From an uncultured Planctomycetaceae bacterium (lineage in GTDB: Bacteria > Planctomycetota > Planctomycetia > Pirellulales > PALSA-1355), in the NCBI GenBank assembly GCA_963785305.1, contig CAWAUV010000005.1, positions 224,001 through 288,000 on the forward strand: a DNA stretch of 64,000 nt, given 5' to 3'. Position 1 is the stretch's first letter. Each line of letters opens with the position of its first letter. A program made the translations under genes and the position numbers. Below, piece after piece: positions 41,463-63,792 of this stretch. The notes under the pieces were generated by a model. The model was given only the letters and a program-made list of their open reading frames with translations, was not told where the DNA came from and did no database searches.

Positions 41463-41587
41463 GCACCGAGCACGTGCTCGAAGGCTTCGTAATGCGCGTC
41501 GTTGCGGAATATCTTGGCCCGGGAAGTCGCTCGATTCAGGGCATGGTAGACGCCGCCAGCTTCGTCGGCTCGTGGTGGTTGTGGCAT
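41463..41587 (-). pseudogene. N-terminus of a RAYT/Y1 HUH transposase, truncated by IS66 (absent from the ORF track)
   Basis: My translation: MPQPPRADEAGGVYHALNRATSRAKIFRNDAHYEAFEHVLG, matching the MPRxxR..GxxYHxxNRG..IF..DYxxF start of REP-associated tyrosine transposases. Confidence 0.8.
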
Positions 41588-41594
41588 GGCCGCC

Positions 41595-41623
41595 AGCCTA
41601 CCAACAACCGCCAGCAAAATCAA
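41595..41623 (-). promoter_or_regulatory. Probable promoter of the RAYT-like gene; its -35 lies inside the 28-bp site
   Basis: TTGATT (41623-41618), 17 bp, TAGGCT (41600-41595) preceded by TGG, then 7 nt to the ATG (leaderless). Confidence 0.55.
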
Positions 41624-41628
41624 TGATT

Positions 41629-43564
41629 ATCGCGGTAGGGATGGCCCTTTCGGGCCACCCCCCGCACAGATCCGTACGTGCGGAACTACCGCATACGGCT
41701 CCTACCTTGGATACAAACGACCAAACCGCACTTCGGGATAAGGATGCAGGATTTTCGGGGTGGGAAGCCATCGTTTGCAAAGCTGCGAGAACTTCCGCCA
41801 GGTCATCCGGCGTCCGCGTTGGCTGCGTCGCCGCAGCATGCGGAGCCAGAGTTTCTGGAAGCGCCGTGCGGAATTGTTGCAATCGCACCGAGTTGCCGGG
41901 AATCGCATGGTAATTGAGCCATCCCCGGTAAACGCTCGATAGCCATGGCCCGACTTGCGCCAAGTCCATGTGCATTTTCCCGCGCAGCGCTTCTTTCAGT
42001 TCGCGCAGTTTGCCACGAAACTTCTTGGCCGATGAGATGCGGCGAATGGTGAATTCGCCCTTCCGGGTCACGCCACTGATGTGGGTGAAGCCCAGGAAGT
42101 CGAATGTCTCCGGTGGGCCATCGCCACGCTTCGATCGTCGTTCGGCCGCATAGCGTCCGAACTCGATCAGCCGCGTCTTCTCCGGGTGCGGTTCCAAACC
42201 GAATTTGGTGAAGCGTTCCCGGAGCGCCGCCAGGCAGCGTCGCGCGTCGGACTCCTCGCGGAATCCGACTACGAAATCGTCCGCATAGCGCACGATGATG
42301 ACCTCGCCCACGGCATGGCGTTTCCGCCACGCCACCAGCCACAGGTCCAGAACATAGTGCAAGAACACGTTCGAATAGAGCGGCGAAATCACCGCTCCTT
42401 GAGGTGTTCCCACGGTGCTCGGGGACCATTCGCCATCTTCCGACACTCCGGCTCGAAGCCATTTCTTCAGCAGCCGAAGCAGTCGTCGGTCGGCGATCCG
42501 ATGCTCCAGGAACTTCATCAACCATGCGTGGTCGATGTTGTCGAAGAAGCCGCGGATGTCCGCATCCAAAATCCAGTTCACTTTCCGCTTCTTGATGCCC
42601 ACGTAGAGCGCGTCCAAGGCTCGGTGACAGCTTCGTCCAGGACGAAAGCCGTAACTGAAACCCAGAAAGTCCTCTTCGTAGATGCACTCCAGGATCGTCC
42701 GTACGGCTTGCTGGACGATCTTGTCCTCCAGCGCCGCGATCCCGAGGGGCCGCGGCTTGCCGTCGAGCTTGGGAATCCAAGTTCGCTTGGACGGCCTGGC
42801 TCGATAGGCTCCCCGATGGATTCGACTGTGCGGATCGTCGATCCGCGTTTCGAAATCGGTGGCGTATTGAGCCCATGTCAGGCCATCGACGCCGGGCGCG
42901 GCTTGCTTCTTCAGGTCGAAGAAACTCGCCACCAGCAGTTCGGGCGTGACATGGTTCAGCAGATTGTTGAACCGCATCTTCTTGTCGCGTTGTGCCGCTT
43001 CTCGCACGCCCAGCAGTCCGCGCGGACCTGGGAGCCCGGCGTGTGTCCGGTCCAGTAGCGACTGCTCGGCGTTCTCCTCGGTCAGCTCCCTTCCCTCCAC
43101 GGGCTCCGCCGACAGCGGCACGCTGTCGTTGTTCGCCTGCTTCTTTGGTACTATGGAACTGTCTGACTCCCCGGGAACGTGCATGTCGGACTTGTGGCCT
43201 CGCGCCTTCTCCGACCGATCCGCTTCAAGCGAAGCGGATGTTCCCGGGATCTCCCGGCTTCCGCGAGAAAAGTTTCCGGCCGTGCGGGTGGTCCCGGACT
43301 CCGTGGGGGAGACGTCGGACTCGCCATGATCGTTCGACATCACTGTTGCCTTCCCGCATGAATCGAGCGACGGGGTCAGGACAAGGTCGGCCGCCACAAA
43401 AGAATGTTTTCGGAGCTCGATACACCGCCCGGCCGTGCCTCTGTGAACGCTTCGCCCTGCCAGTTGCCCGACACGACGCATCACTCGAGGCCGAGGTGGC
43501 TGGCTAGGCCTTGCCTCGTGCGACTCTTTCATTCGCGACTCTCCTCCGGCTTGTGCCGGCGCAC
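41629..43564 (-). mobile_element. Group II intron copy 1 (bacterial class E-like, IEP without endonuclease domain)
   Basis: 5' GTGCG; domain V/VI GGAGCCGTATGCGGTAGTTCCGCACGTACGGATCTGTGCGGGGGG...CCCTACCGCGAT; RT ORF inside. Confidence 0.95.
41702..43184 (-). CDS. ltrA: Group II intron reverse transcriptase/maturase (frameshift at about 41860)
   Basis: RPLGI, SYGFRPGR, DIRGFFD, GTPQG, RYADDF, FDFLGF; ends ILHPYP with no HNH domain. Confidence 0.9.
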
Positions 43565-43581
43565 CCTGACCCCTTTGAATT

Positions 43582-43705
43582 CGCCCGGTCTTGCCGGTGA
43601 TTTGCTTTTGCCGATTGTAGGTTTGCATGACTTGGTCGGAGCCGCTGACGCTGTCGGGATAGATCGTGGCGCTGAGCAAGCCGTTGCTGGCGATCGACGA
43701 TTGCG
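43582..43705 (-). pseudogene. Short Rhs core stub cut at site A
   Basis: SSIASNGLLSATIYPDSVSGSDQVMQTYNRQKQITGKT is homologous to about 60300-60420 of the large Rhs. Confidence 0.8.
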
Positions 43706-43723
43706 CTACTCCATGGCCACCGA

Positions 43724-44296
43724 TTAGTATCCAGGTTCCGTCGAAAGAAAGAGTCGAATTAGTCCAACTATCATCCAAAAACACACAGATAGATAAGTTA
43801 TGACATATAGTACGTCTGCGATGCTCAATCGGTATCCGTTATGAGTTTTGAAAGCGATTGCCAGACGCCGCCAAATCAAAGCAATCCAGACGCCGGATAC
43901 GATAAGCGAATACGACACGCAATCCGCTATGCATTCCTCACGATTAAACAAAATCCGTCGACCGGTGTTAAGGTCGAAGTTTATCGAGGCATAATGGCCG
44001 TGATAATGGCCAGAAAGTGTAATATGAAACGCCCAAACTATAATGAACCAAACGACAACAAGAACGAGCTTGTAAAAAAAACGAGATATCGAAACCGGCA
44101 CCGGCAGGAGGAGCAGCGAGATTCCAATCCCTGCATAAATTGGCCATGCGGCCAGCAGGTACCAGGGAGAATGCTTTACTCCGTTAACTACGTAGCTATT
44201 CGAATCAAATTGCCGCCATAGCTCTACCGGAATGAACGAAAGCGCAAAGACAAATGCCGATCGCACAACATCGTTGATAACGCGCTTGATCGACAT
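43724..44296 (-). CDS. Putative membrane immunity protein
   Basis: AT-rich, about five TM segments, directly downstream of an Rhs tip. Confidence 0.65.
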   Translation of the reverse strand: MSIKRVINDVVRSAFVFALSFIPVELWRQFDSNSYVVNGVKHSPWYLLAAWPIYAGIGISLLLLPVPVSISRFFYKLVLVVVWFIIVWAFHITLSGHYHGHYASINFDLNTGRRILFNREECIADCVSYSLIVSGVWIALIWRRLAIAFKTHNGYRLSIADVLYVITYLSVCFWMIVGLIRLFLSTEPGY

Positions 44297-44351
44297 TTCG
44301 TGACTCTGAATAGAACACGTTGGCGTTATCGAAGTCGACAGGAACATACGC

Positions 44352-46360
44352 TCATGGTTTATTGCAAACGACGCTGCAGACGTCTCGGCAGACCTGCCCT
44401 CCCGCAGCAAAAGCGACTTCGCAGGATTTTGCCCATGCCTTGTTCTTTAGTTTTCCGCAGATTTTTGCGGCCTGGCCCCCTTTATTGCATGCCGACAAGC
44501 ATGCCATAATTGAACAATTTCCGTAGAGCGCGCCGCCGTCTTCCACGGAAGTAAATCCAATTCCCATCGGTGGGAGCATTGGCGGGCATGGCGGGTTGTT
44601 TTTATACGATGGGCAGCGAGGGATAAATCCCAGCAACCAGTCAAGCGCCTGACAGCTCCGATCTGAGACCTCTTGATATGTATAAACTACGAGCTGACCC
44701 ATTGGTATGGATCTTAATGCGTCACACGTGATTACCTGCCTGACGGCCGATGCGTCATTTGTGCGCTTTATATCAGTGCACTTATAGACACAGTCAGTAC
44801 TACAGTTTCCGGACGGCTTCGATGAAGCCAGTGTAGTACAAGCGAAATCAACAAAACAGCCGAGCCCGCGACCATCGATGAGCGTTATTGGGTTATTGTT
44901 CACATAACGCGATACATTTGAATCGCCCGCAGCGAACATTAACGGGTCTCTCGTGATCCAGAGACCGAGCAGCGGATTCAAATACCGGTTCCGAACCTGA
45001 TACAGCCCCGATTCGCCGTCCCAGCGGTAGCCGCAGTAGAGGGTTTCCCAGGCGTAGTCGCTTCCGCCTGAGCGAACGGTGAAATCGGGGTTCAGGAATG
45101 TCGGCAGGCCATAAACCGTGTAGCTGTAGCGTTCCTGCACCATGCCCGATGTATTGACGATCGCCGTGACGTTCCAATTCGCGTCTTGCAGGGCGTAGAG
45201 GCGTTCGGTCGAGCGGTCCCGAAGGACCAGATCGTCGATGTAGCGTTGGCCCCAGACGAATTGGCGGTCGGCGGTCGTGGCGCCGCCGACGCGTTCTTCG
45301 TGGACTTGCCAATCGTTCGAGTAGTACAAGTCGCGAAGAACGCCGGAAATCGTCTTCGTCGCGCGACGGTTGAGGCCGTCGTAGCTGTATGTTGCCACGC
45401 CAATCAGTTGAGTCAAGCGGTTCCAAGCGTCGTAGACGCCGGTGAACGCCGACGAAGGAGATGCGGGCTGCGGGATCGCGGTCATCGCGCCGGTCGGGCT
45501 GTAGGCGGGCTGCGCCACGCGGCGCCGTAGCGCTGGGTGATGCCCATGATTTCGTTCACCGGATTACTCGACCGTTGCTGGTCGAGATTGTTCGCGGCGG
45601 TCACGACATCCGTGTTGACGAAGTTGGACCAATTGCCCGTGGCGTCGAGGCCCCATTGCTGGGCGAGGGTCATGTTCGCGATCGATTGGTTGCCACTATT
45701 GAGGTTGCCGCGGCTCATGTCGGTGAGGCGCTGCAGGCCGTCGTACGAATACAACTCATCGTTGCCGGCGGCGACGGCTTGATGGCGCCTGACACGGTTG
45801 CCGGCTTGGTCGTAGCCGTATTGGATTTGATCGAGCGTGGCGCTGGGCGTCGTCCAGGGGTTGTTGATCACTCGGCCGAACTGGTCGAGGCCGAGATACG
45901 GATTCGCGCCGGAGCCGCCGGCGAGCGACCAGGTGACGTTCGGCTGAGGATACGTCAGATCGACGAATGTCGAGAGGCCCAGATAGGTGTATTCAACCAG
46001 CGTCGTGCCGTCGGAATCGACGTAGCTCGTGACGCGGCTGAGGGCGTCGTCATTGCCGCTCGCATAGTTGTACGATACGACGCGGGGCGTCGTGCCGCTG
46101 ACGGCGCCGGGGTAGGTGATCGCCGTCAGGCGCGTTCGTGTTGGCGCTGCCGTCGGCGAAGGCGTACTGCACGTTGGGAGACGTGGCGGTGTTCACGGCG
46201 GCGCCATGCTGCTGATACTGCTTGACGAGTTGCTGGAAACCATTGTAGGCGTTTTGGATCTGATTTACCACTGTCGTACCGGCGGTGTCGGCGTAACTCG
46301 TAATTTGATTCACGAGCCCGCGAATTTCGTAGTTCGTGGTGATTCGCCGCACCCGCGTGG
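44352..46360 (-). pseudogene. Orphan Rhs (family A) core fragment with Cys-rich C-terminal tip (44352-44861)
   Basis: YD repeats; LYQVRNRYLNP..GLWITRDP...YVNNNPITLIDGRGL; homologous to 58398-60210; frameshifts at about 45515 and 46135. Confidence 0.9.
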
Positions 46361-46444
46361 CGGGGCTGCCGGCACTCGGACAGCTGAACGTCAGCAAAAA
46401 CTGCCCGCCGGGTCGAAAAACCGCCGCCAGCGAAATCAATGAGC

Positions 46445-48379
46445 ATCGCGGTAGGGATGGCCCTTTCGGGCCACCCCCCGCACAGATCCGTACGTGCGGA
46501 ACTACCGCATACGGCTCCTACCTTGGATACAAACGATCAAACCGCACTTCGGGATAAGGATGCAGGATTTTCGGGGTGGGAAGCCATCGTTTGCAAAGCT
46601 GCGAGAACTTCCGCCAGGTCATCCGGCGTCCGCGTTGGCTGCGTCGCCGCAGCATGCGGAGCCAGAGTTTCTGGAGCGCCGTGCGGAATTGTTGCAATCG
46701 CACCGAGTTGCCGGGAATCGCATGGTAATTGAGCCATCCCCGGTAAACGCTCGATAGCCATGGCCCGACTTGCGCCAAGTCCATGTGCATTTTCCCGCGC
46801 AGCGCTTCTTTCAGTTCGCGCAGTTTGCCACGAAACTTCTTGGCCGATGAGATGCGGCGAATGGTGAATTCGCCCTTCCGGGTCACGCCACTGATGTGGG
46901 TGAAGCCCAGGAAGTCGAATGTCTCCGGTGGGCCATCGCCACGCTTCGATCGTCGTTCGGCCGCATAGCGTCCGAACTCGATCAGCCGCGTCTTCTCCGG
47001 GTGCAGTTCCAAACCGAATTTGGTGAAGCGTTCCCGGAGCGCCGCCAGGCAGCGTCGCGCGTCGGACTCCTCGCGGAATCCGACTACGAAATCGTCCGCA
47101 TAGCGCACGATGATGACCTCGCCCACGGCATGGCGTTTCCGCCACGCCACCAGCCACAGGTCCAGAACATAGTGCAAGAACACGTTCGAATAGAGCGGCG
47201 AAATCACCGCTCCTTGAGGTGTTCCCATGGTGCTCGGGGACCATTCGCCATCTTCCGACACTCCGGCTCGAAGCCATTTCTTCAGCAGCCGAAGCAGTCG
47301 TCGGTCGGCGATCCGATGCTCCAGGAACTTCATCAACCATGCGTGGTCGATGTTGTCGAAGAAGCCGCGGATGTCCGCATCCAAAATCCAGTTCACTTTC
47401 CGCTTCTTGATGCCCACGTAGAGCGCGTCCAAGGCTCGGTGACAGCTTCGTCCAGGACGAAAGCCGTAACTGAAACCCAGAAAGTCCTCTTCGTAGATGC
47501 ACTCCAGGATCGTCCGTACGGCTTGCTGGACGATCTTGTCCTCCAGCGCCGCGATCCCGAGGGGCCGCGGCTTGCCGTCGAGCTTGGGAATCCAAGTTCG
47601 CTTGGACGGCCTGGCTCGATAAGCTCCCCGATGGATTCGACTGTGCAGATCGTCGATCCGCGTTTCGAAATCGGTGGCGTATTGAGCCCATGTCAGGCCA
47701 TCGACGCCGGGCGCGGCTTGCTTCTTCAGGTCGAAGAAACTCGCCACCAGCAGTTCGGGCGTGACATGGTTCAGCAGATTGTTGAACCGCATCTTCTTGT
47801 CGCGTTGTGCCGCTTCTCGCACGCCCAGCAGTCCGCGCGACCTGGGAGCCCGGCGCTGTGTCCGGTCCAGTAGCGACTGCTCGGCGTTCTCCTCGGTCAG
47901 CTCCCTTCCCTCCACGGGCTCCGCCGACAGCGGCACGCTGTCGTTGTTCGCCTGCTTCTTTGGTACTATGGAACTGTCTGACTCCCCGGGAACGTGCATG
48001 TCGGACTTGTGGCCTCGCGCCTTCTCCGACCGATCCGCTTCCGGTGAAACGGATGTTCCCGGGATCTCCCGGCTTCCGCGAGAAAAGTTTCCGGCCGTGC
48101 GGGTGGTCTCAGACTCCGTGGGGGAGACGTCGGACTCGCCATGATCGTTCGACATCACTGTTGCCTTCCCGCATGAATCGAGCGACGGGGTCAGGACAAG
48201 GTCGGCCGCCACAAAAGAATGTTTTCGGAGCTCGATACACCGCCCGGCCGTGCCTCTGTGAACGCTTCGCCCTGCCAGTTGCCCGACACGACGCATCACT
48301 CGAGGCCGAGGTGGCTGGCTAGGCCTTGCCTCGTGCGACTCTTTCATTCGCGACTCTCCTCCGGCTTCGCGCCGGCGAC
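46445..48379 (-). mobile_element. Group II intron copy 2
   Basis: Nearly identical to copy 1. The 5' end reads GTCG, with one G missing (possible sequencing error). Confidence 0.95.
46518..47999 (-). CDS. ltrA: Group II intron RT/maturase, intact
   Basis: Uninterrupted ORF MHVPGESD...RYADDF...ILHPYPEVRFDRLYPR; start codon is inferred. Confidence 0.9.
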   Translation of the reverse strand: MHVPGESDSSIVPKKQANNDSVPLSAEPVEGRELTEENAEQSLLDRTQRRAPRSRGLLGVREAAQRDKKMRFNNLLNHVTPELLVASFFDLKKQAAPGVDGLTWAQYATDFETRIDDLHSRIHRGAYRARPSKRTWIPKLDGKPRPLGIAALEDKIVQQAVRTILECIYEEDFLGFSYGFRPGRSCHRALDALYVGIKKRKVNWILDADIRGFFDNIDHAWLMKFLEHRIADRRLLRLLKKWLRAGVSEDGEWSPSTMGTPQGAVISPLYSNVFLHYVLDLWLVAWRKRHAVGEVIIVRYADDFVVGFREESDARRCLAALRERFTKFGLELHPEKTRLIEFGRYAAERRSKRGDGPPETFDFLGFTHISGVTRKGEFTIRRISSAKKFRGKLRELKEALRGKMHMDLAQVGPWLSSVYRGWLNYHAIPGNSVRLQQFRTALQKLWLRMLRRRSQRGRRMTWRKFSQLCKRWLPTPKILHPYPEVRFDRLYPR

Positions 48380-48468
48380 CCTGACCCCTTTGGATTGTCA
48401 GGAGCAGTCGGTGCGGCGAGCAATATGACGATGATGCTGACGCTTGGCTGACGCAATCGCACATTATT

Positions 48469-48987
48469 TCATTGTTGCCAGACAACTTCTTCATGCAGCG
48501 GCACGATCGCGGCATATTCACTACGGAAGATTGGAAGTTGCTCATTCAAAAACCAAACAAGGCCACCATAGGAGGACGCGTCCAGGCCGATCGATCCGCC
48601 GGTAGAAAAGTCAATTAGAAGCCCGCCGAGTTTCTTAGTATTGCCTTGCTCAAAGGTAGTCACTTTCGTAACCCTGGGGGGCGCGTCATCCAAATTCTTG
48701 CGATAGCAAACGTTCTCAAAAATTCGCATTAGTCCAGTGCGACAATCTGGATATTCCTTTCTGGCCCAAGCGGACCACTCGCTCAGTAACAATCGCTCAC
48801 ATGAAATATCTTCACTGCCAATAGGTTGGCGCAATACTACACAACTGTCATCGAAGCAGAAAATGACAGGGCCGCCTTCAAGCTTTGCCCATCGCTCCGT
48901 GGGATCATCGGACAATGCTTCAATTGCCATGTACACGTCGGTAATCGGTTGCTCTTTCAATGTCTCGATAAAAGTATTTATGCTCAT
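48469..48987 (-). CDS. Putative immunity protein for Rhs-B tip 1
   Basis: AT-rich; ATGA overlap with the toxin stop codon. Confidence 0.7.
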   Translation of the reverse strand: MSINTFIETLKEQPITDVYMAIEALSDDPTERWAKLEGGPVIFCFDDSCVVLRQPIGSEDISCERLLLSEWSAWARKEYPDCRTGLMRIFENVCYRKNLDDAPPRVTKVTTFEQGNTKKLGGLLIDFSTGGSIGLDASSYGGLVWFLNEQLPIFRSEYAAIVPLHEEVVWQQ

Positions 48988-50537
48988 GTTTTTGGCCTCA
49001 AACGCTGAATCATGTCGAACGTGCTACGTTGCACTGATATTAATGCGCCATCAGTGCCTCGGAGTAGAGTAAATCCGCCCCCTTCGAACACCTCAAAGAC
49101 TTGCCCTGGCCTAGCAGGGTCGAGATAGAGTCCTTTTGCCTTGAGCGTTCCATTCTGGATCTGTTGTTCCCAACCACGGAGCACAGCCGCCGTTCCTTCG
49201 GGCGTCTTAAGTTTGGTGTCAATCTTAGTTCCCGTGAGTTCTTCAAGAAACTGCTTCGCTCGTCCACCATGCGACTGCTGGTCAAAATTCTTGCTGGCTT
49301 TTAGGGTAACAGTGTTTGCCACATTACTTGGAGCATTCCCCTCCGCCGCGTTTACACCTGGGCTGGCGAGTTTATTTGGTGTCTCCGGACCGACGAGCGG
49401 ATCAAAGGCGGGGATCGTCCCTTTCGCGAAGCCCGATGCCATTATCAGCGCGTCGTCAAGGTTGCCGCGGCCTGATCGGGTGGGGTCGAGCATCAACGCC
49501 ATCGTGCCGACAACCGCGCCTTGCGATGCCAACACGTTCGCGTCGCGACGCATCCCCATCCGCGCGATCGATTTTCCATACTCCGCCGCAGCATTCCCGC
49601 CTTTAACATACACCGTATTCGGATTGTTTTCATAGGCCCGAACGAAACCGGCGCCGGCCTCATCGGGCGAAACCGCGACGATCGAGGGCTGAGTGCTCAA
49701 AAACGCCTTGTAATCCGCCGCCTTCTTCATCGCGCCTTGCAAAAACGCCGGCGCGGTCGGCGCCAAGCTAAGCACGCTCGGTGACGGATCAGTGCTGTAT
49801 CGTTCCGCGGGCGGCAGCGAATTGAACCAAGTGGTGAATTTTTCCTCGAAATCAAGCGATTGATTAATGTAGTCGGTCAGTTCCTTCGCTTGCTGCTCGC
49901 CGAATTCGCCCGGCGTGAGGATCGATAAATACTCGCGCCCGATTCGTTCCCATTCCGCGTTGAACCGCTCCTCGCGACTCGGAGCGTTCGCGTAGGGTTC
50001 CAACCCTTCGGGATCGACCTCGTTCGTCGGGCTGTTGCCGAACGCGCGGTAGGTGTTGACATCCGCTTGCGCCGGATCCGGCGTGTTCCAGGTTCCGCTC
50101 GACGGATCGTATACCCGGTTCACGGCGAAGTCGTCGCCGGTGGTGGCGTCGGTGAACAGGCCGTCGTAGCCGAAGGCGACGTCGACCGCCGCGGGATCGA
50201 GGGCCGTGTGGCTAACCGGCTGGCCGGCTGGCCGAAGGCGTTGTAGGTGATGTGGTCTTCGATCGCGCCGCTCGAATCGATCGTGTCGCGCACCGTGTTT
50301 TGGCCGTCGTCGAGCGTCCACAAGATGTTGCCGGGCGTGCTCGGGTCGGTGACTTGCTCGTCGGCCAAAAGCTGATCGACCGCGGGTCCCCACAAATAAC
50401 GATCGGTGAGATTCGCCGCGCTGGGCGCGGAGCGCTCGCGCCATCGCCGGTGGTCTGGAACTGGAACACGGCTTGGCGTCCGCCAGCGGAGCCGCTATCC
50501 GGCGGGTCGTCGAAGATAAAACGCTGTCTGCTCGCGA
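48984..50537 (-). pseudogene. Orphan Rhs (family B) fragment + conserved post-cleavage domain + variable tip 1 (48984-49327)
   Basis: RYLWGPAVDQLLADEQ, NRVYDPSSGTWNTPDP, GNSPTNEVDPEGL; duplicated at 61531-62732. Confidence 0.9.
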
Positions 50538-50559
50538 GTCAAACACCGGTTATCAGTTA

Positions 50560-50587
50560 AATCAATGACTCCTGACCCCTTTGGATT
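50560..50587 (-). repeat. 28-bp site C (intron-free)
   Basis: AATCCAAAGGGGTCAGGAGTCATTGATT, at the junction of the Rhs-B module and truncated hypD. Confidence 0.95.
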
Positions 50588-51440: not shown

Positions 51441-51456
51441 AAGAGCCTTCCATCCT

Positions 51457-52515: not shown

Positions 52516-52532
52516 CGAAAGCGGCGTGTGCC

Positions 52533-53728: not shown

Positions 53729-53745
53729 GGGCGAAAGGGGCGCGG

Positions 53746-56148
53746 ATGCGAGTATCGGCATCGGTCGACGATTCCTTCGCCCGCGATGCGCCCATCGCCC
53801 GGCGCGTTTCGATTCGCGGCGTGGTCCAGGGCGTGGGCTTTCGGCCTTTTGTCCATCGCGCGGCATGCGAGCATCGGATCGTGGGATGGGTCATCAACGA
53901 CCGCCGCGGTGTCGAGATTCATGCCGAAGGGTCACCCCACGCGGTCGCGGCCTTTATCGAAATCTTGAAGCAAAGCCCGCCGCCCGCCGCGCGCATTGCC
54001 TCGCTTGCCTGCGACGCCGCGCCGCTCGAGGGGTTCGTCGACTTCACGATTCGGGCGAGCGACGATCGTGGCCAGCCCACGGCTCGCGTGTCGCCCGATC
54101 TGGCCGTGTGCGAGGACTGCTTGCGGGAACTGTTCGATCCCAAGGATCGGCGGCAAGGCTACCCCTATTCGAATTGCACGCATTGCGGCCCGCGCTATTC
54201 GATCGTGTGCCGCTTGCCTTATGATCGGGCGAACACGACGCTTGCATCGTGGCCGCTGTGCGACGCCTGTCGCGCGGAATACGAAAATCCACTCGACCGC
54301 CGGTTTCATGCCCAACCCACGGCCTGCGCGGCTTGCGGCCCGGGATATGAACTGGTCGATTTCCAGAACCGGCCCTGGAAGAGCGGGGGTGATGAAACCG
54401 CCGTCGGGCGGATCGAACGGGCCAGTCTCGCGAGCAGCCGCGCGATCGCTCGCGCCGCCGAGCTTTTGCGCGGGGCGCCATCTTGGCGATCAAAGGCGTT
54501 GGTGGTTATCACTTGGCTTGCGACGCCGCCAATCGCGCCGCGATCATCGCGCTGCGAGAGCGCAAATTTCGCAAGGAAAAGCCGTTTGCGCTCATGGCCC
54601 GCGATCTCGCGGCGGCGCGAAGGATCGCGGCGCTCACGGCCGAGCACGAGCGCTTGCTGGTCGATCGGGCCAAGCCGATCGTGCTTGCTCCCTCCCGCGC
54701 AACCGCGGGCCGCGAGATCGTGTTCGACGCGATCTCGCCCGAGACCGACGACCTTGGCGTGATGCTACCCTACGCGCCGCTGCACTATTTGCTCTTCGCG
54801 GCCGGCGCTCCATCCGTGCTGGTGATGACCAGTGGCAATCGCTCCAGCGAACCGATCGCTTTCGACGATCTCGACGCGCGGGAGCGGCTTTCGGGCATCG
54901 CCGACGCCCTGCTTCGTGGCCAGCGACCCATCGCGCGGCGAGTTGAAGATTCGGTCGTCATGGTGCGCGACGGGCAAATGACCCTGGTTCGCCGCGCCCG
55001 GGGCTATGCGCCGGCGGCCGTTTGCCGGCTGGAGTCGGATCGACCCGTCCTCGCGCTCGGCGCCGATTTGAAAAGCGCCGTGGCGCTGGTGATCGATGGC
55101 GAGGCGCTCGTCGGTCCCCACTTGGGCGATTTGGATGATGCCGGCGCCTTCGCGGCCTTCGAACGCTCGGTGGCGGATTTGCTGGCAATGGCCGAACTGC
55201 GGCCCCAGGATTTGGTCGTGGCTCATGACATGCACCCGCAGTATCGCTCGAGTCGCCATGCCCGGGGACTCGCGGCGGCGCGGCTTGTGGCGGTGCAGCA
55301 CCATGAAGCGCATGTGGCGAGTGTGATGGCGGAGCATGGCCTGCTTGATGAGCGAGTGGTGGGGGTGGTATTCGATGGCGCGGGCTATGGCCGCGATGGC
55401 GCGATCTGGGGCGGCGAGTTCTTCGTCGGCAGCGTGAGCCGCGGCCTGGAACGCGTCGCATGGCTGCGGCCGACTCCGATGCCCGGCGGCGACGCCGCGG
55501 CTCGCTTTCCGGCTCAAGCCGCCGCCGGCTTCGTGGCCGATGCGGCCGCGTGCGCCGAATCGTGGCCGAGCGATTTACCATTGGCCGAAGCGATCGCCGG
55601 TCCGCCATTTGGCCTGCCGCGGCGCTTCGCCGACGCGCTGGCGATCGCCCGCAAACGAGTGCGATGTTTCCCCACAAGCTCCGTCGGCCGGCTATTCGAT
55701 GCCGTGGCGGCGCTGTTGGGGTTCACGCGGCCGATCAGTTTCGAAGGGCAAGCCGCGATCTGGCTCGAGCAGCGAGCCCGCGGCATCGGACCACAGTCTT
55801 CGTATCCCTTCTCGGAGCTCGACCCGCGACGGCTCGTGGCGGCCGTGGTTCGCGATCGGATCGCCGGGCGCGACGTCGGCGAAATCGCCGCGGCGTTTCA
55901 TCAAACACTTGCCCGCGGCGCGGCGAATCGCGCGGGATCTTTGTCGAAGCCATGGGACCCGAGTGGTGGCGGTCTCGGGCGGCGTGTGGCAAAACGAGTT
56001 GCTGTGGAGGGCGTTTATGGAGTACTTCGCCGACGATCGAGAGATTTCCATTATTGCGAACCAGAGTGTCCCCTTGGGCGATGGCGGCATCGCCTTGGGT
56101 CAGGCCGCCCTGGCGGCCGCCAGCCTCCGCGCGACCGACACGACATGA
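53746..56148 (+). CDS. hypF: HypF carbamoyltransferase (frameshifts at about 54475 and 55915)
   Basis: GVVQGVGFRPFV, CxxC zinc fingers, RRFHAQP, KGVGGYHL, QHHEAH, SGGVWQN, DGGIALGQ. Confidence 0.95.
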
Positions 56149-56327
56149 TTGCGCTTACACATGTCGAGAAGTGCGAAATGCGTTTGAAAGAGCCAACGTG
56201 AACGACGACGGAGCAAGAGAGGTCGGCTCGACGATCCGCGGCAGAGGCTCGAAATCACCTTTGGTGGTGGTTTTTAACGTGCTCGCGAAGAGGCGGGAGC
56301 ATTCGGCTCGGGTTTTGCAAAACGTGG

Positions 56328-57864
56328 GTAACTGTTAAGCATTTCCTCTTTCCCGAAATTGGGTTTTCGGTCACATTGATTGGATCATGGATGATCGAGA
56401 TCGACGGATCGCCGAGTTGGAAGCGGAAATCGCCCGGTTGCAGGCGGAGAACGGAACGCTGCGCAAGCGCGTCGAGCAACTCGAACAGCAAGTCCAAAAG
56501 TTTTTGCAGCGGCGCAAGAAAACCCGCTCGGCCAGCGATGCGCGGCGTGGCGAACAGGATCGCCGCCGCAAGCAGTTTCGCAAACATCCGGGCAGCTTTC
56601 GTCCAGGGCCGCCGCCCGGCACGGTATTCATCGAACACGATGTGCATCCGCGAGAGTGTCCGCACTGTGGCGGCCGCGATCTGACCGCCACCGGCGAGTT
56701 CGAAGACCATGAGATGGCGGAGATTCCAGAGCCCAAGCTCGAATGGCATCGGTATCGCCGTCATACCTATCGTTGTGAACATTGCCAAGCCACCTGCCAA
56801 GGACGCGGCGACTTGGAACTGCCCGGCGCCCACATCGGGCCACGCGCGCGCTTGTTGGTCTGCTACGCGCGGGTTCACCTGGGCATCTCGCTCGGCAAAA
56901 CGCAACACTTGCTGAAAGACTTCTTTGGTCTTTCGGCCAGCCGGGCCGGATTGCTCGGCCATTTGCGTTGGGGCGGCGCTTTGTTCGAGCCGGTGGTCGA
57001 CAAACTCTGGGAACTCTTGCGCAATTCGCCGGTCGTGCAAGGCGATGAGACCGGCTGGCGGATCGATGGCCAGCCCGTTTGGGCCTGGTGTTTTCGAGAC
57101 ACGCGCTTGGCATTGTTCCTGATCGATCGTCATCGCAATCGGGCCGTGCTCGAGCGAGCGTTGGGCACATCGTTCGCGGGCACGCTGGTCAGCGATTTTT
57201 ATGCGGTCTACAACCGGCTCGACTGCCGCAAACAGCGCTGCTTGGTCCATTTGCTTCGCGAGTTGCACAAGCTGCGCGAGACGTTGCCGGCGGCGAGCGT
57301 GCGGGCCTTCATCCAGCCGTTGATCACGCTGTTTCAAGACGCGATCCGGTTGGGCCACGAGCGCAAGTCGCTCGGCAAAAAAGCTTTCAACGCGGCCCGA
57401 CACGAGATTCAAAACCGTTTCGACACGTTGATGCTCGAGACGCGCGTGCGGCATCGCGAATGTTTGCGAATCTGGCGGCGGCTGTTCAAGCACTCGGACG
57501 AATTGTTCACCTTCCTCGACGATGCGAATGTTCCGGCCGACAACAACGGAACCGAACGCGACATCCGAAGCCTGGCGGCGGCGAGGAATGATGGCGGCAC
57601 GCATCGGACCGAATGGAGCGCGGCGGCGTTCGCCCGAATCAAGAGCGTGATCGCGACCGGCGCGAAAAACGGTTTGAGCTTCGCAAGGTATGGAATCGAA
57701 GTCGTGCGCGCTAAATTGCAAGGCAAGACCCTGCCGCTGCCGATCACCAATAGCAGTTAAAACATCCGCCACGCGACCCATCCCCGGAAACCCCTCGCCC
57801 GCGATCCCCGCCAATATCGCCACCGCCCCCCCGCGCCCAGGCCACGCCACGGCTTAACAGTTAC
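56328..57864 (+). mobile_element. IS66-family element, single-ORF type, full length (1537 bp)
   Basis: 13-bp TIR GTAACTGTTAAGC; no target duplication visible. Confidence 0.9.
56387..57760 (+). CDS. IS66 transposase (TnpC-like)
   Basis: Coiled-coil N-terminus, CPHCG zinc finger, DETGW, LVSDFY, QRCLVHLLR, NNGTERDIR. Confidence 0.95.
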   Translation: MDDRDRRIAELEAEIARLQAENGTLRKRVEQLEQQVQKFLQRRKKTRSASDARRGEQDRRRKQFRKHPGSFRPGPPPGTVFIEHDVHPRECPHCGGRDLTATGEFEDHEMAEIPEPKLEWHRYRRHTYRCEHCQATCQGRGDLELPGAHIGPRARLLVCYARVHLGISLGKTQHLLKDFFGLSASRAGLLGHLRWGGALFEPVVDKLWELLRNSPVVQGDETGWRIDGQPVWAWCFRDTRLALFLIDRHRNRAVLERALGTSFAGTLVSDFYAVYNRLDCRKQRCLVHLLRELHKLRETLPAASVRAFIQPLITLFQDAIRLGHERKSLGKKAFNAARHEIQNRFDTLMLETRVRHRECLRIWRRLFKHSDELFTFLDDANVPADNNGTERDIRSLAAARNDGGTHRTEWSAAAFARIKSVIATGAKNGLSFARYGIEVVRAKLQGKTLPLPITNSS

Positions 57865-58160
57865 ATTTCAACGATCTCATCGAATCCATGCGGCTTTATA
57901 GTTTCGGAAACTAGACATGACAAATACGTAACACAAAGCATCACCACAAATAAACGATAAACGATTGAACCGACCCCCAATACGCCCCAGCATCCTATCA
58001 ATGCGATCTGTGCGTAGGTTATCCCATCTGCGACAAAGTCTTCGTCGCTGCCGGTGCAATCGGCGATCCGAACAACCACAAGACTTCCCAGGACGTGGAT
58101 TGTCGCAAGGCCGGCCATGACCACACAAGGCTTGGAGCACGAATGTAAAAACGACGTATT
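57865..58160 (-). pseudogene. Putative membrane immunity gene truncated by IS66
   Basis: AT-rich hydrophobic frame (AQIALIGCWGVLG) running into the IS end; start uncertain. Confidence 0.5.
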
Positions 58161-58397
58161 GCGTCGCTGCGTTTCATATGATTCGTCTGATTGTCGACTT
58201 TCGCCGACTACGATTCGCCGATGCATTGTACGTACGCCGCTTTCTACAAAACGACCAAGTTGTACGCGTCTGCAATGCATACAACATGTACTAGCATCGA
58301 TTGTTGTTGCATCTCAAACCGCACGTGTGAGGATGCCGTAAAGTGTTACGAATAAGCAATGCGCAAGCTGCTGATGGGCTACATCGAAGTGGCCTGA

Positions 58398-61300: not shown

Positions 61301-61480
61301 ATTCGAGCTCGCCGTCGATGCCGATTTGCCTATCTCGGAAGTCGTAGATGTAGCTGGTCACGCGGTCGTTCTCGCCGGTGGCGTCGACGAACGCGGTCTT
61401 TTCGGTGAGGTTGCCGTCGCCGCCCGACGAACCGCCGTCGTATACGTTGCCGGTGACTTGGACCATGTTGTTCCCCGAAC
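58398..61480 (-). pseudogene. Large Rhs (family A) protein, 5'-truncated at site D, with Cys-rich tip (58398-58694)
   Basis: About 1030 codons of YD repeats; LYLARNRYLNP..GVWITRDPIG...NTDPNGT; the frame begins abruptly at the site. Confidence 0.9.
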
Positions 61481-61508
61481 AATCCAAAGGGGTCAGGAGT
61501 CATTGATT
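61481..61508 (+). repeat. 28-bp site D (intron-free)
   Basis: GAAC|AATCCAAAGGGGTCAGGAGTCATTGATT. Confidence 0.95.
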
Positions 61509-61530
61509 TAACTGATAACCGGTGTTTGAC

Positions 61531-63058
61531 TCGCGAGCAGACAGCGTTTTATCTTCGACGACCCGGCGGACAGCGGCTCCGCTGGCGGTGGCCAGGCCGT
61601 CTTGCAGTTCCAAACCACCGGCGATGGCGCGAGCGCTCCCACGCCGACCGCGGCGAACCTCACCGATCGTTATTTGTGGGGACCCGCGGTCGATCAGCTT
61701 TTGGCCGACGAGCAAGTCACCGACCCGAGCACGCCCGGCAACATCTTGTGGACACTCGACGACGGCCAAAACACGGTCCGCGACACGGTCGATTCAAGCG
61801 GCGCGATTCAAGACCACATCACTACAACGCCTTCGGCCAACCGGTCAGCCACACGGCCCTCGATCCCGCGGCGGTCGACGTCGCCTTCGGCTACGACGGC
61901 CTGTTCACCGACGCCACCACCGGCGACGACTTCGCCGTGAATCGGGTGTACGATCCATCGAGCGGGACCTGGAACACGCCGGATCCGGCGCAAGCGGATG
62001 TCAACACCTACCGCGCGTTCGGCAACAGCCCGACGAACGAGGTCGATCCCGAAGGGCTGGAACCCTACGCGAACGCTCCGAGTCGCGAGGAGCGGTTCAA
62101 CGCGGAATGGGAACGAATCGGGCGCGAGTATTTATCGATCCTCACGCCGGGCGAATTCGGCGAGCAGCAAGCGAAGGAACTGACCGACTACATTAATCAA
62201 TCGCTTGATTTCGAGGCAAAATTCACCACTTGGTTCAATTCGCTGCCGCCCGCGGAACGATACAGCACTGATCCGTCACCGAGCGTGCTTAGCTTGGCGC
62301 CGACCGCGCCGGCGTTTTTGCAAGGCGCGATGAAGAAGGCGGCGGATTACAAGGCGTTTTTGAGCACTCAGCCCTCGATCGTCGCGGTTTCGCCCGATGA
62401 GGCCGACGCCGGCTTCGTTCGGGCCTATGAAAACAATCCGAATACGGTGTATGTTAAAGGCGGGAATGCTGCGGCGGAGTATGGAAAATCGATCGCGCGG
62501 ATGGGGATGCGTCGCGACGCGAACGTGTTGGCATCGCAAGGCGCGGTTGTCGGCACGATGGCGTTGATGCTCGACCCCACCCGATCAGGCCGCGGCAACC
62601 TTGACGACGCGCTGATAATGGCATCGGGCTTCGCGAAAGGGACGATCCCCGCCTTTGATCCGCTCGTCGGTCCGGAGACACCAAATAAACTCGCCAGCCC
62701 AGGTGTAAACGCGGCGGAGGGGAATGCTCCAAAGAGTGGACCTGTCGCAGGTGGCGGCGCGAGCCTTGAACGTGGCCTTGGAAACATGTCGGCAGCGGAA
62801 ATTTCGCGAATTCAAAACGCAGCGAATCGCATTGATAAGCCCATAAGCGTCGTTGGAAGCCGCTCGGGCGGTGCGAAACTTCCACGGCCGGACTCCGACT
62901 GGGATTTCGTGATCGAAGCGAATAACAAAGTGAGAGCTAGCGCGTCTCGGTCGCTTCCGGGAGCAAAATCTGTAACAAATAACCTTGACTGGAACCAAGA
63001 CGTTTTCAAGGGGCCGCTCGATCCCGCCCACCCACACATAACGTTCTTCCCGGAGTAG
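61531..63058 (+). pseudogene. Orphan Rhs (family B) fragment + conserved domain + variable tip 2 (62733-63058, nucleotidyltransferase-like)
   Basis: Near-identical to 49328-50537 up to ...GVNAAEGNAP; the tip contains VVGSR...PDSDWDFVI. Confidence 0.9.
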
Positions 63059-63061
63059 ACG

Positions 63062-63337
63062 ATGCGAGAAACGACAGTCGAATTATTGAACGACGAGGGT
63101 AATGGTGCGGTCCTTAAATTGCCGGGTCGCGCATTTCCTGGGATACTGATTCAAGGCGACACGCTTCAGATTCTGATCGACGACTTAGAGGAACTGCTCG
63201 ATTTGCTTGGCGCTGAGGCACTAGAGGAACCGCGTGAATCACTTGATGGCATTATTGAGCGTCTCAAAGGATATCGAACTCGCTACGTTGAGGCGCTGAA
63301 AAACCACGGGATTTCTGTGCCGTTTTCGAGCCGTTAG
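63062..63337 (+). CDS. Putative immunity protein (resembles DUF6959)
   Basis: 91 aa, 3 nt after the toxin stop; AVLKLPGRAFPGILIQGDTL. Family assigned from memory, not by search. Confidence 0.65.
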   Translation: MRETTVELLNDEGNGAVLKLPGRAFPGILIQGDTLQILIDDLEELLDLLGAEALEEPRESLDGIIERLKGYRTRYVEALKNHGISVPFSSR

Positions 63338-63616
63338 CTTTTAACTCCAAAACCTGCAAGACGCTGGGCTCTGGCGCGCCCGGCGCGAGTGGTGAATTGC
63401 GAGATTGTGGTGGGTCTTGCGATGACACGTGGGATCCCAGACATCCACGTTGTCGCTGGCCGCGTTCTGCTCAGCAACGCGGGGGCCTACGATCGGCGGG
63501 GCGCTCACCGACGCAGGCATCTACGCTAAATGAAGCGTTCAGCGGGCGTTACATCGCCGCCAAGCGTCGCTAGCGGAATTTCGTCGCCACTCGAATTTCT
63601 GGATGTCTGGGATCGG

Positions 63617-63775
63617 CTCCTGACACGGACGTCGGCTGGGTCGACAATGAAGTCACCGGCGAGGAACTGAGCGCCAACTCGTACTCGGAGGTCAGCGTCT
63701 CGTCGCAGGACGGCACGGTCACGACGGCGCCGGATTCCGGCTCCTATTCGGCGGAAATCGACGTCTCGAACGAAC
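63617..63775 (+). pseudogene. Coding-like fragment (Ser/Thr/acidic) cut at site E
   Basis: Frame APDTDVGWVDNEVTGEELSANSYSEVSVSSQDGTVTTAPDSGSYSAEIDVSNE, with host-like codon usage, ends at GAAC|site. Confidence 0.4.
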
Positions 63776-63792
63776 AATCCAAAGGGGTCAGG
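63776..63792 (+). repeat. 28-bp site E, 5' half (intron 3 inserted)
   Basis: GAAC|AATCCAAAGGGGTCAGG^GTGCG. Confidence 0.9.

Follow-up and report, generated by a model that had tools for sequence, protein, structure and literature searches.

Does a run of Rhs toxin genes punctuated by a short repeated site, in an uncultured planctomycete, represent an integron-like system for toxin/immunity cassettes? An earlier note had proposed this for the stretch of 64,000 nucleotides analysed here (the window). In that reading a Y1 HUH (RAYT) enzyme nicks the 28-bp site (S) and transfers strands, and so excises, captures and re-inserts the cassettes in the manner of an integron. We consider it improbable. 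Its link of S to RAYT genes and its annotation of orphan Rhs-CT/immunity pairs stood, and the capture system did not.

The 12-nt core of S, AAAGGGGTCAGG, occurs five times in the window (43565-, 48380-, 50571-, 61486+ and 63781+, signs giving the strand) against an expectation of 0.16; the five sites are real, and chance is ruled out. The full 28-bp pattern is unbroken only at sites C and D (2 matches in the window, 0.00 expected). In A, B and E a group II intron (GTGCG...; 1.94 kb) directly abuts the 5' half, and the other half, NNTCATTGATTT, resumes past the intron 3' end, within the window for A and B and beyond it for E. When the introns were removed in silico the pattern fitted 5/5 sites. 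Orientation, spacing and cargo direction agree with the original description: A, B and C are direct repeats on the minus strand, D and E direct repeats on the plus strand, and the site-to-site distances without introns are 2.2, 2.9 and 2.3 kb. The features are as follows.

40310..41466, minus strand: IS66-family copy with an internal deletion of ~379 nt and the transposase split into two ORFs; cuts the RAYT stub
41459..41587, minus strand: N-terminal stub of RAYT (Y1 HUH), 42 codons, the last codons supplied by the IS66 end
41617..41628, minus strand: 3' half of site A, AATCATTGATTT, followed by a RAYT-type leader
41629..43564, minus strand: group II intron A, 1936 nt (RF02005 at 43289-43527, RF00029 at 41629-41703; RVT_1)
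43565..43584, minus strand: 5' half of site A, A-subtype GCGAATTCAAAGGGGTCAGG, equal to IBS2+IBS1
43587..43727, minus strand: Rhs stub in frame with site A, corresponding to residues 350-396 in the 1029-aa Rhs
43724..44410, minus strand: hydrophobic ORF of 228 aa, putative immunity partner of the Cys-rich tip (by position only)
44352..46343, minus strand: Rhs-A orphan fragment (TIGR03696) that starts at core residue ~429 and carries a C-terminal tip rich in Cys
46344..46444, minus strand: 3' half of site B with A-type leader, in frame with the Rhs-A fragment
46445..48379, minus strand: group II intron B of 1935 nt, encoding an intact reverse transcriptase/maturase of 675 aa
48380..48398, minus strand: 5' half of site B, B-subtype ACAATCCAAAGGGGTCAGG
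48469..48987, minus strand: 172-aa ORF, putative immunity protein for tip 1, from its position
48984..50546, minus strand: Rhs-B orphan, core end (motif PTNEVDPEGL) and C-terminal toxin tip 1 (TIGR03696)
50560..50591, minus strand: site C (28-bp pattern 50560-50587), intact, unoccupied, B-subtype; left edge adjoins truncated hypD
50592..56323, plus strand: hypD' (from profile position 95), hypE and hypF, 99.8% identical to C5:75051-69312
56324..57864, plus strand: full IS66 copy, its flanks matching two different donor loci
57861..58280, minus strand: ORF of 139 aa, putative immunity protein, lying downstream of the Rhs of 1029 aa
58398..61477, minus strand: N-terminally truncated Rhs (1029 aa) with a Cys-rich tip, cut exactly at the left edge of site D
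61478..61508, plus strand: site D (28-bp pattern 61481-61508), intact, unoccupied, B-subtype
61526..63058, plus strand: Rhs-B orphan with tip 2 (TIGR03696)
63062..63337, plus strand: DUF6959 ORF, putative immunity protein for tip 2 (PF22281, E 1.2e-24)
63773..63792, plus strand: 5' half of site E, B-subtype
63793..64000, plus strand: 5' part of group II intron E, which runs past the window end

The description of S as a hairpin did not hold for these copies. The intact sites in the window do not fold (-1.0 kcal/mol, z +1.4; 192 of 200 shuffles equal or better), and the sole folder is the RAYT-linked variant found elsewhere in the genome (-6.7 kcal/mol, z -2.4, 5/200 shuffles). The hairpin has been lost from the window's sites, including the B-type sites that bound its cassettes, a point against capture by a RAYT enzyme.

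In this genome S forms an inverted repeat on both sides of RAYT-like genes. At C7:1444000-1442300 lies a full element that scores above the PF01797 cut-off; one copy of S precedes its ATG and a second, inverted, falls at its stop codon. Of the 80 loci fetched from genomes of other Planctomycetota, 26 contain an intact homologue of 221-225 aa with the same S flanks, the pairs lying ~740 nt apart. The proposed tie between the site and Y1 HUH genes was therefore correct, and S as cognate flank of RAYT genes is a point in favour of capture. Judged by this sequence context, S is a REP-like repeat that flanks, as inverted copies, a planctomycete element of RAYT type (Y1 HUH); a complete unit runs S, a leader of ~45 nt, the RAYT gene, and inverted S overlapping the stop codon.

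The family has decayed in this organism into solo left ends, solo right ends and MITE-like derivatives of ~425 nt. A genome census gave 79 copies of S in total, with RAYT-end 5' subtypes in 53 (26 left, 27 right) and an intron in 19. Searches of the assembly with tblastn recovered two frameshifted near-full copies and about 16 stubs of the site-linked RAYT family and no intact member; at 84.7% completeness, the assembly may lack a cognate RAYT that is intact. An intact paralogue, 59% identical, lies at C9:330559-329885. The array had been said to end in a RAYT-like HUH transposase, and what stands there is the 42-codon stub, which aligns to RAYT-family residues 1-41 (88% identity, tblastn) and has no HUH and no Tyr motif. 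It stops short of the HUH, where IS66 begins; the motif itself (SHWHLVL), read in a full RAYT copy, sits beyond the stub's endpoint. The composite of intron, stub and IS66 is found at four loci in the genome. That the local RAYT is a stub, with no intact site-linked relative in the assembly, argues against capture.

The introns were identified with Rfam RF02005 and RF00029 and with TIGR04416. Genome-wide there are 21 full and 4 partial copies, 98-99.7% identical; the S 5' half precedes 17/21 full copies, and the remaining 4 are preceded only by a (G)GTCAGG-like end. The intron carries CCUGACCCC, complementary to exon positions -9 to -1, and its CUUUUG pairs with exon CAAAGG. Because the S 5' half is complementary to the exon-binding sequences, S is also, as predicted from this pairing, the homing site of a very active 1.94-kb group II intron: the 13 nt that end the S 5' half would base-pair with EBS1 and EBS2, and the insertion point would fall between ...GGTCAGG and NNTCATTG. 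The protein of intron B scores 354 bits against TIGR04416 (cut-off 300), and the 5' end of this copy is GTCGCC, that is, GTGCG minus one base. The reverse transcriptase ORF of intron A is frameshifted near residue 624 (tblastn), and past intron E the genome continues with a RAYT-type 3' half, the same RAYT stub, and IS66.

The two halves of a site can be assigned to subtypes separately. Among classifiable empty sites genome-wide, 39 were concordant and 0 discordant, while intron-occupied sites were concordant in 5 cases and discordant in 7, including all 3 in the window (Fisher p = 7e-6, with copies that are not independent). A mismatch confined to occupied sites suggests that exchange ran across the 1.9-kb introns rather than at the 28-bp site, and it counts against capture. 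The Rhs stub at site A is in frame and belongs natively with the A-type 5' half, so that whole flanks are more likely to have been exchanged than the half-site alone converted. No reciprocal products of intron-intron exchange were found. The mismatched halves fit recombination between intron copies, which would have joined a B-type array, an A-type cassette and the composite of intron, RAYT stub and IS66 at A, B and E.

The cargo was described correctly: the Rhs_assc_core model TIGR03696 matched both Rhs-B fragments, the Rhs-A fragment and the 1029-aa Rhs, and DUF6959 lies at 63062-63337. By domain content and arrangement the cassettes are genuine orphan toxin modules. Neither the 228-aa nor the 172-aa ORF has a match in Pfam or NCBIfam. 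Several frameshifts interrupt the core part of the Rhs-A fragment, and one the 5' core part of the Rhs-B orphan at 48984..50546; the orphan with tip 2 is 95-99% identical to the site C cassette as far as 62732.

The position of S relative to Rhs is fixed. The leader-to-Rhs junction is identical across 7/7 B-type copies in the genome, all A-type copies share one common junction, an S-like sequence lies 103-111 nt ahead of core residue 429-432 in 5/5 such orphans on C7, and full-length Rhs genes are without S. One fixed position in each family (A and B) argues for two ancestral fusions, the only independent S-Rhs junctions, and against repeated capture. The sites had also been taken to delimit the cassettes. 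In the Rhs-A family, however, the Rhs-homologous fragment begins ~140 nt upstream of the site, which places S inside the conserved core fragment and off its boundary; there the site B 3' half and A-type leader supply ~38 residues in place of ~34 core residues. For each of the 3 cassettes in the window, the variable part occurs only once in the genome; no cassette therefore turns up at a second location. The inactive local RAYT, the lost hairpin, these two fixed junctions, the single-copy variable parts and the concordance of 39/39 empty sites together weigh against integron-like capture. Instead, each orphan family would hold a single solo left end, made up of S and leader, always at the same spot of its conserved 5' core fragment; the fusion would have arisen once per family and spread with the cassette via Rhs orphan-array dynamics, meaning homologous recombination and duplication in the conserved 5' region.

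Separately, a second toxin family, PT-HINT, has orphan cassettes at C8:316-370 kb that are also headed by S or its left end. The association of S with toxin arrays exceeds what we can show to be chance, and this counts against our explanation. S-led units at the head of orphan cassettes of two families, Rhs and PT-HINT, and sites that run as direct repeats in the direction of the cargo favour capture; in other genomes, however, Rhs was found within 1.5 kb at only 3/80 S loci.

The left edge of S is another point on which the integron-like reading gains. At 18 junctions genome-wide, this edge is joined to DNA copied from some other locus and cut short (178 nt to 7.3 kb), and at these junctions the continuation of the joined locus is absent downstream of S, making the joint one-sided. 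The joined DNA terminates in G at 16/18 (binomial 6e-7) and in CG at 10/18 (3e-5), stands in either orientation relative to its own genes, and is 99.5-100% identical to its source in three of the 18. The position of the edge varies by +/-2 nt, and filler bases are occasionally present; three places recur as breakpoints, about -21, -1/-2 (where the intron inserts) and +8 to +10. RAYT element ends, in this genome and in others, carry partial sites in tandem whose breaks fall at the left edge and within the loop (L045, L069). Homologous recombination offers no explanation for one-sided junctions with G/CG bias. The joining of unrelated DNA looks enzymatic. Both the sharp, recurrent, biased edge and the tandem partial sites support capture, the biased one-sided joints also count against our explanation, and a site-specific nick could account for these joints. 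What was recently joined to S, however, is pieces of hypDEF and an Rhs core, not cassettes. Our best guess is a nick or break, possibly made by RAYT in trans, followed by microhomology-primed copying.

The one-sided joints and tandem half-sites might also be by-products of the intron reverse transcriptase, if cDNA synthesis on S RNA reached a 5' end near -21 and then switched template with ~1 nt of overlap. Group II reverse transcriptases carry out end-to-end template switching, the breakpoints mirror the anatomy of a group II homing site, ragged edges and filler bases would be in keeping, and the retroelement is very active (21 copies). Even so, we regard this as very unlikely: the same left edge and tandem half-sites recur at RAYT elements of other genomes, the upstream DNA differs at every copy, so that no promoter could set the RNA 5' end at -21, and the joined DNA lies in either orientation.

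The centre of the window is made up of copies. Positions 50592-57864 are a 99.5% copy of C5:67779-75051, with hypD complete at C5:75051-69312 and truncated in the window, and positions 56324-61477 (the truncated Rhs and IS66) are a 99.96% copy of C7:1640773-1645921. The window is best read as a recent mosaic, in which near-identical copies of two distant loci meet in one IS66 (56324..57864), an element without an 8-bp target duplication; IS66-IS66 recombination is the presumed cause. IS66 is present in 27 copies genome-wide, and inverted repeats I2, I3 and I8 match the copy at 40310..41466 (Pfam DDE_Tnp_IS66, zf-IS66) to 56324-57864. That IS66 (27), introns (21) and Rhs paralogues misled the assembler is scarcely credible even at a locus so extremely repeat-dense, with 5-7-kb segments 99.5-100% identical to other loci, and although none of the public sequencing runs contains the junction. 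The sequence around the hypD'/site C and Rhs'/site D junctions is unique, with <=1 nt overlap, so that an overlap-based assembler could not create them; both obey the same left-edge G rule as 16 others elsewhere; and 21 introns and 27 IS66 copies are resolved in an assembly whose contigs reach 2.2 Mb.

How does the locus compare with known systems? REP/RAYT systems (Nunvar; Ton-Hoang; Bertels & Rainey) reportedly consist of REP-associated tyrosine transposases with inverted REP flanks, the repeats also forming REPIN doublets. Likewise, a Y1 HUH gene here stands between inverted copies of a short, partly palindromic repeat that is also scattered through the genome as singlets and inverted doublets. 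Unlike the single domesticated copy of REP/RAYT, the gene is multi-copy, decaying and insertion-sequence-like; its best NCBIfam match, NF047646 (REP-associated tyrosine transposase), stays below the cut-off (62.8 and 49.2 against 80 bits), solo left ends lie in toxin-gene arrays, and 19/79 repeats hold an intron. Mobile elements that target REPs have been described: a table in Tobes & Pareja 2006 (PMC1525189) lists REP-specific insertion sequences, and for a group II intron of P. putida KT2440 it gives REP association in 2/9 copies, whereas 17/21 full introns here occupy the repeat, always at exactly the same position. This choice of target is explained by EBS-IBS complementarity. Group IIC-attC introns home into integron attC sites, short structured recombination-type repeats that separate gene cassettes. 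By analogy, as group II introns homing into a repeat between cassettes, they are the nearest real link of introns to integron-like arrays; unlike them, the present intron has EBS1 and EBS2 and matches Rfam D1D4-6, and there is neither IntI nor attC. Integrons share with this locus a short site in direct repeat between co-oriented cassettes. They differ in that the window has no tyrosine or serine recombinase, as the earlier note had stated (PF00589, 13 genome-wide, and PF00239, 4 genome-wide, none inside), and the local sites have no hairpin; integron cassettes each bring their own site beside unrelated cargo, whereas the cargo beside S is always the same conserved Rhs core, no cassette occurs in two contexts, and the S-Rhs fusions would be inherited with the cassettes.

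The cargo resembles Rhs orphan toxin/immunity arrays as outlined in Koskiniemi 2014 (PMC3967940) and Poole 2011 (PMC3150448), which share the tandem core fragment, variable C-terminal tip, small downstream ORF and missing N-terminal part. Relative to the arrays outlined there, what differs is a transposon end (S plus leader) fixed in the core fragment of each family, and introns that interrupt it. Overall, we conclude that S is probably the end-repeat of a decayed transposon family that also became the target of an intron, and that the array is probably a patchwork assembled by recombination among repeats, not a new integron-like system.

A pattern search of the window with the site core AAAGGGGTCAGG returned five matches against 0.16 expected. 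The complete 28-bp pattern was uninterrupted only at sites C and D; the positions of these sites and of the Rfam matches at the other three are as follows.

Sites and intron domains in the window
50560-50587, minus strand: site C, intact
61481-61508, plus strand: site D, intact
43289-43527, at minus-strand site A: RF02005, intron A
41629-41703, at minus-strand site A: RF00029, intron A
48104-48342, at minus-strand site B: RF02005, intron B
46445-46519, at minus-strand site B: RF00029, intron B
63831-64000, at plus-strand site E: RF02005, intron E

Alignment of the five places, together with the Rfam matches, showed that the common 5' half of the site at A, B, and E is followed directly by GTGCG (GT-CG at B) and the domains of a group II intron, and that the intron 3' end, ...CCGCGAT, is followed by NNTCATTGATTT, the missing half of the site. 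All five sites reported in the earlier note therefore exist, although only C and D are intact, the other three being split by a 1.94-kb group II intron. Orientation, spacing, and the Rhs/immunity cargo were also as that note had described, whereas the hairpin that it had assigned to the site was not seen at the intact window sites. The B variant present at C and D folded at -1.0 kcal/mol (z +1.4; 192 of 200 shuffles as good or better), and only the RAYT-linked variant folded (-6.7 kcal/mol, z -2.4; 5/200 shuffles as good); on the imperfect palindrome of REP/RAYT repeats, the RAYT-linked and Rhs-linked variants thus point in different directions. One RAYT-type site (L008:320-342, equal to C8:344819-344841 of this assembly, G000) was flagged as terminator-like, with a 5-bp GC-rich stem followed by ATTGATTTTG; it resembles the terminator targets of some group II introns, in a weak match of which 0.7 are expected in shuffles. 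A coding role for the site, as codons of the Rhs DPxGL motif, was rejected: the reverse strand reads MTPDPFGL but is oriented against the cassettes, and at site C it does no more than continue into hypD', the truncated hypD abutting that site.

The intron has the group II ribozyme domains D1-D4 and D5/D6, a reverse transcriptase/maturase, and EBS1/EBS2 complementarity to the 5' exon. Introns A and B scored 145-150 bits for RF02005 and 42.3 bits for RF00029, and intron E, cut by the window end, scored 92.9 bits for RF02005. For the intron ORF, the TIGR04416 model of group II reverse transcriptase/maturase scored 354 bits, above its cut-off of 300, and RVT_1 matched too. Genome-wide, 21 full and 4 partial copies were found at 98-99.7% identity, values that imply recent mobility. 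The 5' half of the site precedes 17 of the 21 full copies, joined at the same nucleotide each time, while the remaining four are ectopic and preceded by a GGTCAGG-like (IBS1-like) end only. Within domain I, CCUGACCCC perfectly complements the 9 nt at exon positions -9 to -1, and CUUUUG pairs with exon CAAAGG over 6 nt with one G-U; by this complementarity, targeting of the site would be ordinary EBS/IBS recognition. The insertion point coincides with the 3' edge of the loop in the RAYT-linked site variant. Group II introns near REPs have been reported earlier, for 2 of 9 copies in P. putida KT2440, in a table of PMC1525189. Two further observations concern intron copies. Intron B begins (window 48375-48379, minus strand) with GTCGCC where GTGCGCC is expected, one base short of the 5' splice consensus, and may fail to splice despite its intact reverse transcriptase ORF. 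At C5:295270-295470, the 3' flank of one intron enters a GGGGTCAGG|GCGCCGCGGCCGAAGCCGG junction with a reverse transcriptase match at 73% identity, which looks like a second, diverged intron family with a similar target.

To place the site beyond the window, copies were counted across the 6.4-Mb, nine-contig assembly. The census gave 79 copies: 49 intact and empty, 19 followed by the intron, and 11 half-only or in tandem. Two copies of the associated RAYT gene serve as reference points.

RAYT copies compared
C7:1444000-1442300: best-preserved element; site, leader of ~45 nt, ATG of a Y1_Tnp gene with SHWHLVL, and an inverted site overlapping the stop codon
Window 41587-41459, minus strand: stub of 42 codons, after intron A and the RAYT leader

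The fuller copies in the genome scored 52.2 and 50.3 bits for PF01797 (cut-off 23) and carry the SHWHLVL HUH motif; their top NCBIfam model was the REP-associated tyrosine transposase (NF047646), under its cut-off. At least 117 stretches of public genomes contained the site core, and almost all of them belong to Planctomycetota. RAYT homologues in other Planctomycetota were often flanked by the site on both sides, ~740 nt apart, and an intact homologue of 221-225 aa directly flanked by a left-end and/or right-end site was present at 26/80 fetched loci of other genomes. At 53/80 the RAYT was absent, leaving solo sites or inverted doublets; doublets in relatives have a spacing of 54-97 nt. Only 4 of 40 related genomes carried the site, in 1-2 copies each, compared with 49 exact-type matches in this genome. 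Inverted flanking copies and dispersed repeats with doublets are both features of REP/RAYT systems, and from this arrangement the site is the REP-like flank of a RAYT family, and the site has expanded strongly in this genome. The pairing of the site with a Y1 HUH enzyme proposed earlier was thus borne out by the C7 element and the other genomes, and only a Y1_Tnp family adjoins the site.

The same proposal placed a RAYT-like HUH transposase at the end of the array, and this part failed. The local RAYT is dead: the window stub matches family residues 1-41 and ends before the HUH motif, where an IS66 copy begins, so the HUH domain typical of REP/RAYT systems is shared only by the fuller copies elsewhere in the genome. 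The composite of intron, RAYT stub, and IS66 recurs at four loci, and the site-linked family comprises 2 frameshifted near-full copies and ~16 stubs genome-wide. The sole intact relative in the assembly, on C9 and 59% identical, has no flanking copy of the site. This 225-aa paralogue (C9:329885-330559, locus L007) is followed after its stop codon by two tandem copies of another short repeat, GTCCCCTTTATTGCTCC, and may therefore have its own REP family. A sigma-70 scan found no promoter in the RAYT left end, and the Rhs-B leader held one weak 9-of-12 match.

We then considered the relation of the site to the Rhs cassettes. All four window Rhs genes have the build of ordinary orphan toxin modules, a core end with a variable C-terminal domain: each matched Rhs_assc_core TIGR03696 (42-50 bits, cut-off 32.5), and the DPxGL-type motif PTNEVDPEGL is present. 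The small ORFs 3' of them (172 aa, 228 aa and hydrophobic, DUF6959, and 139 aa) are putative immunity genes by position. Sorted by their two halves, empty sites fell into four concordant classes: the left and the right RAYT end, Rhs-A, and Rhs-B. The leader-to-Rhs junction was identical in 7/7 Rhs-B copies, and another single junction was common to all A-type copies. In the A family, ~34 core residues are replaced in frame by ~38 from site and leader, and an Rhs stub (residues ~350-396; window 43587-43727) lies upstream of the site. These fixed junctions, the in-frame insertion, and the upstream stub place the site, in both orphan families, inside the conserved 5' fragment of the core. Site-like sequence occurred 103-111 nt upstream of 5/5 orphans starting at core residue 429-432 in the main Rhs cluster (C7:1637-1680 kb), and none was found upstream of the full-length Rhs genes. 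The pattern reflects two ancestral site-Rhs fusions carried along by normal orphan-array evolution rather than a fresh boundary at every cassette. The genome holds a single copy of each variable tip and immunity ORF of the three window cassettes, and therefore no cassette was seen in two contexts. The idea that the tail at site E is a conserved Rhs-B stub, like the stub of the A type, was rejected because this tail proved unique in the genome. Among the 80 fetched loci, three from other Planctomycetota MAGs (L017, L051, L082) carry a site or doublet within 1.5 kb of Rhs sequence, too few for an enrichment test; in L017 it precedes, by ~540 nt and in the same orientation, a C-terminal core fragment of Rhs.

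Comparison of 5' and 3' site halves was then used to assess how the window was assembled. Of 77 sites considered, 26 were unclassifiable. The two halves agreed in subtype at 39/39 classifiable empty sites, while intron-occupied sites were concordant in 5 cases and discordant in 7, including 3/3 in the window (Fisher p = 7e-6, for copies that are not independent).

Discordant sites in the window (5' half/3' half)
Site A, minus strand: A-type/RAYT
Site B, minus strand: B-type/A-type
Site E, plus strand: B-type/RAYT

At site A the stub and the A-type half belong together natively, which makes whole-flank exchange across the introns (1.9 kb, ~99% identical) the simplest cause. The centre of the window, too, consists of copies of distant loci. 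Positions 50592-57864 are a 99.5% copy of C5:67779-75051 (IS66 and hypF-E-D, with hypD complete there), and positions 56324-61477 duplicate C7:1640773-1645921 at 99.96% identity (IS66, a small ORF, and an Rhs whose sequence runs on at C7); these segments overlap in one IS66 without target duplication. The genome contains 27 IS66 copies, and no target duplication accompanies the window's central copy or its outer pair, as would fit frequent exchange between IS copies. The outer pair is inverted and encloses a block of 26.8 kb, but a composite transposon of this extent was not supported, as no matching 8-bp target duplication was present. The hypD'/site C junction was found in no public sequencing run (best share of sampled words, 0.07). 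Two ORFs in the window may be disrupted: hypF (53338-56201) is split into an ORF at 53338-54762 and another, overlapping it, at 54483-56201, so that a frameshift is suggested; the donor copy (C5:69312-75051) is 99.8% identical. The DHDPS-family ORF at 39030-39674, just left of the array-ending IS66, covers from its first start codon no more than positions 95-285 of the profile and may be frameshifted or mis-started.

These results do not support the integron-like capture system put forward in the earlier note. No working enzyme and no local hairpin were found, site-Rhs fusions number only two, no cassette occurs in two places, and half mismatches are tied to introns. Its observation that the window lacks a tyrosine or serine recombinase was correct (0/13 PF00589 and 0/4 PF00239 genome matches fall in C5:224001-288000), and in having no IntI next to the array the locus is unlike an integron. 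It also differs in lacking an attC-like folding hairpin at each cassette boundary, and in cargo: integrons carry unrelated genes, each with its own site and in varying contexts, whereas here the same Rhs core fragment recurs with one junction per family. IS200/IS605 elements have Y1 enzymes with different subterminal hairpins and no terminal inverted repeats, unlike the RAYT element, whose ends are inverted copies of one repeat; IS91/ISCR elements, with Y2 HUH enzymes and ori/ter ends, are unlike it as well. Together, these data indicate that the site is a RAYT repeat doubling as a group II intron homing site and that the array is a recombinational patchwork.

One class of junctions gives a smaller version of the capture idea a slim chance of survival. 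The segments copied from C5 and C7 stop exactly at the left edges of sites C and D. Genome-wide, the upstream flank of 18 sites is a copy, cut short at 178 nt to 7.3 kb, of a locus whose full extent lies elsewhere; the truncated flanks include introns and RAYT left ends, and three recent cases join an IS copy plus adjacent donor DNA to the site. Simple insertion of a site-led element was rejected as a general explanation, since at 16 junctions searched within 40 kb downstream the continuation of the interrupted locus was not found and only other paralogues appeared, in 3. The joined flank ends in G at 16/18 sites (binomial 6e-7; 11/18 without 1-nt ambiguity, 9e-3) and in CG at 10/18 (3e-5), and the left edge is ragged by ~2 nt. 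The genome has many partial sites in tandem, broken at the left edge and in the loop, and such sites also flank RAYT elements in other genomes. Nested arrangements at C7:1629202-1631841 (intron cut at nt 649, then a new site half and full intron) and C5:705808-706993 (intron cut at nt 943, then a RAYT left end) fit the one-sided pattern.

Left ends also occur in a toxin array outside the window. This second polymorphic-toxin array, at C8:316000-370000, consists of ORFs that differ at their C-termini and share a Pretoxin HINT domain (PF07591). In front of several of its orphan PT-HINT fragments lies a RAYT left end (site, leader, and first ~10 codons) or a MITE-like derivative of 425 nt, and the MITE at C8:350655-351081 has flanks from two different toxin genes. 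A functional fusion of the RAYT start to PT-HINT fragments gained no support at C8:332k, where a TGA stands in frame after the RAYT ATG.

From the joints we infer that a break or nick would arise at the left edge, possibly started by a RAYT acting in trans, and would be repaired by microhomology-primed copying. A stronger version, which we consider improbable, makes the left edge an active strand-transfer point: a RAYT in trans would nick it and join site-led DNA to single-stranded 3' ends in G or CG, creating new Rhs and PT-HINT cassette boundaries and copying distant segments in. If so, a REP/RAYT system would drive recombination in toxin arrays, and its site would carry a group II intron as a passenger.

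Overall, the claimed new system resolves into a RAYT/REP family, a group II intron, IS66, and ordinary Rhs orphan modules. Among the papers listed in narrow literature searches, nothing in print was found on RAYT with a group II intron, or on orphan Rhs with a REP-associated tyrosine transposase. The locus is among the clearest cases of a group II intron using a REP-like transposon end as its natural homing site, in 17/21 copies and with base pairing as the explanation. It also illustrates how polymorphic-toxin arrays can be rearranged by a small set of multi-copy elements, which can bring in copies of housekeeping DNA (hypDEF) as well. The left-edge joints, with their G/CG bias, are a tangible record, in sequence, of possible RAYT activity in vivo; if they are RAYT-made, the original idea would be partly vindicated.
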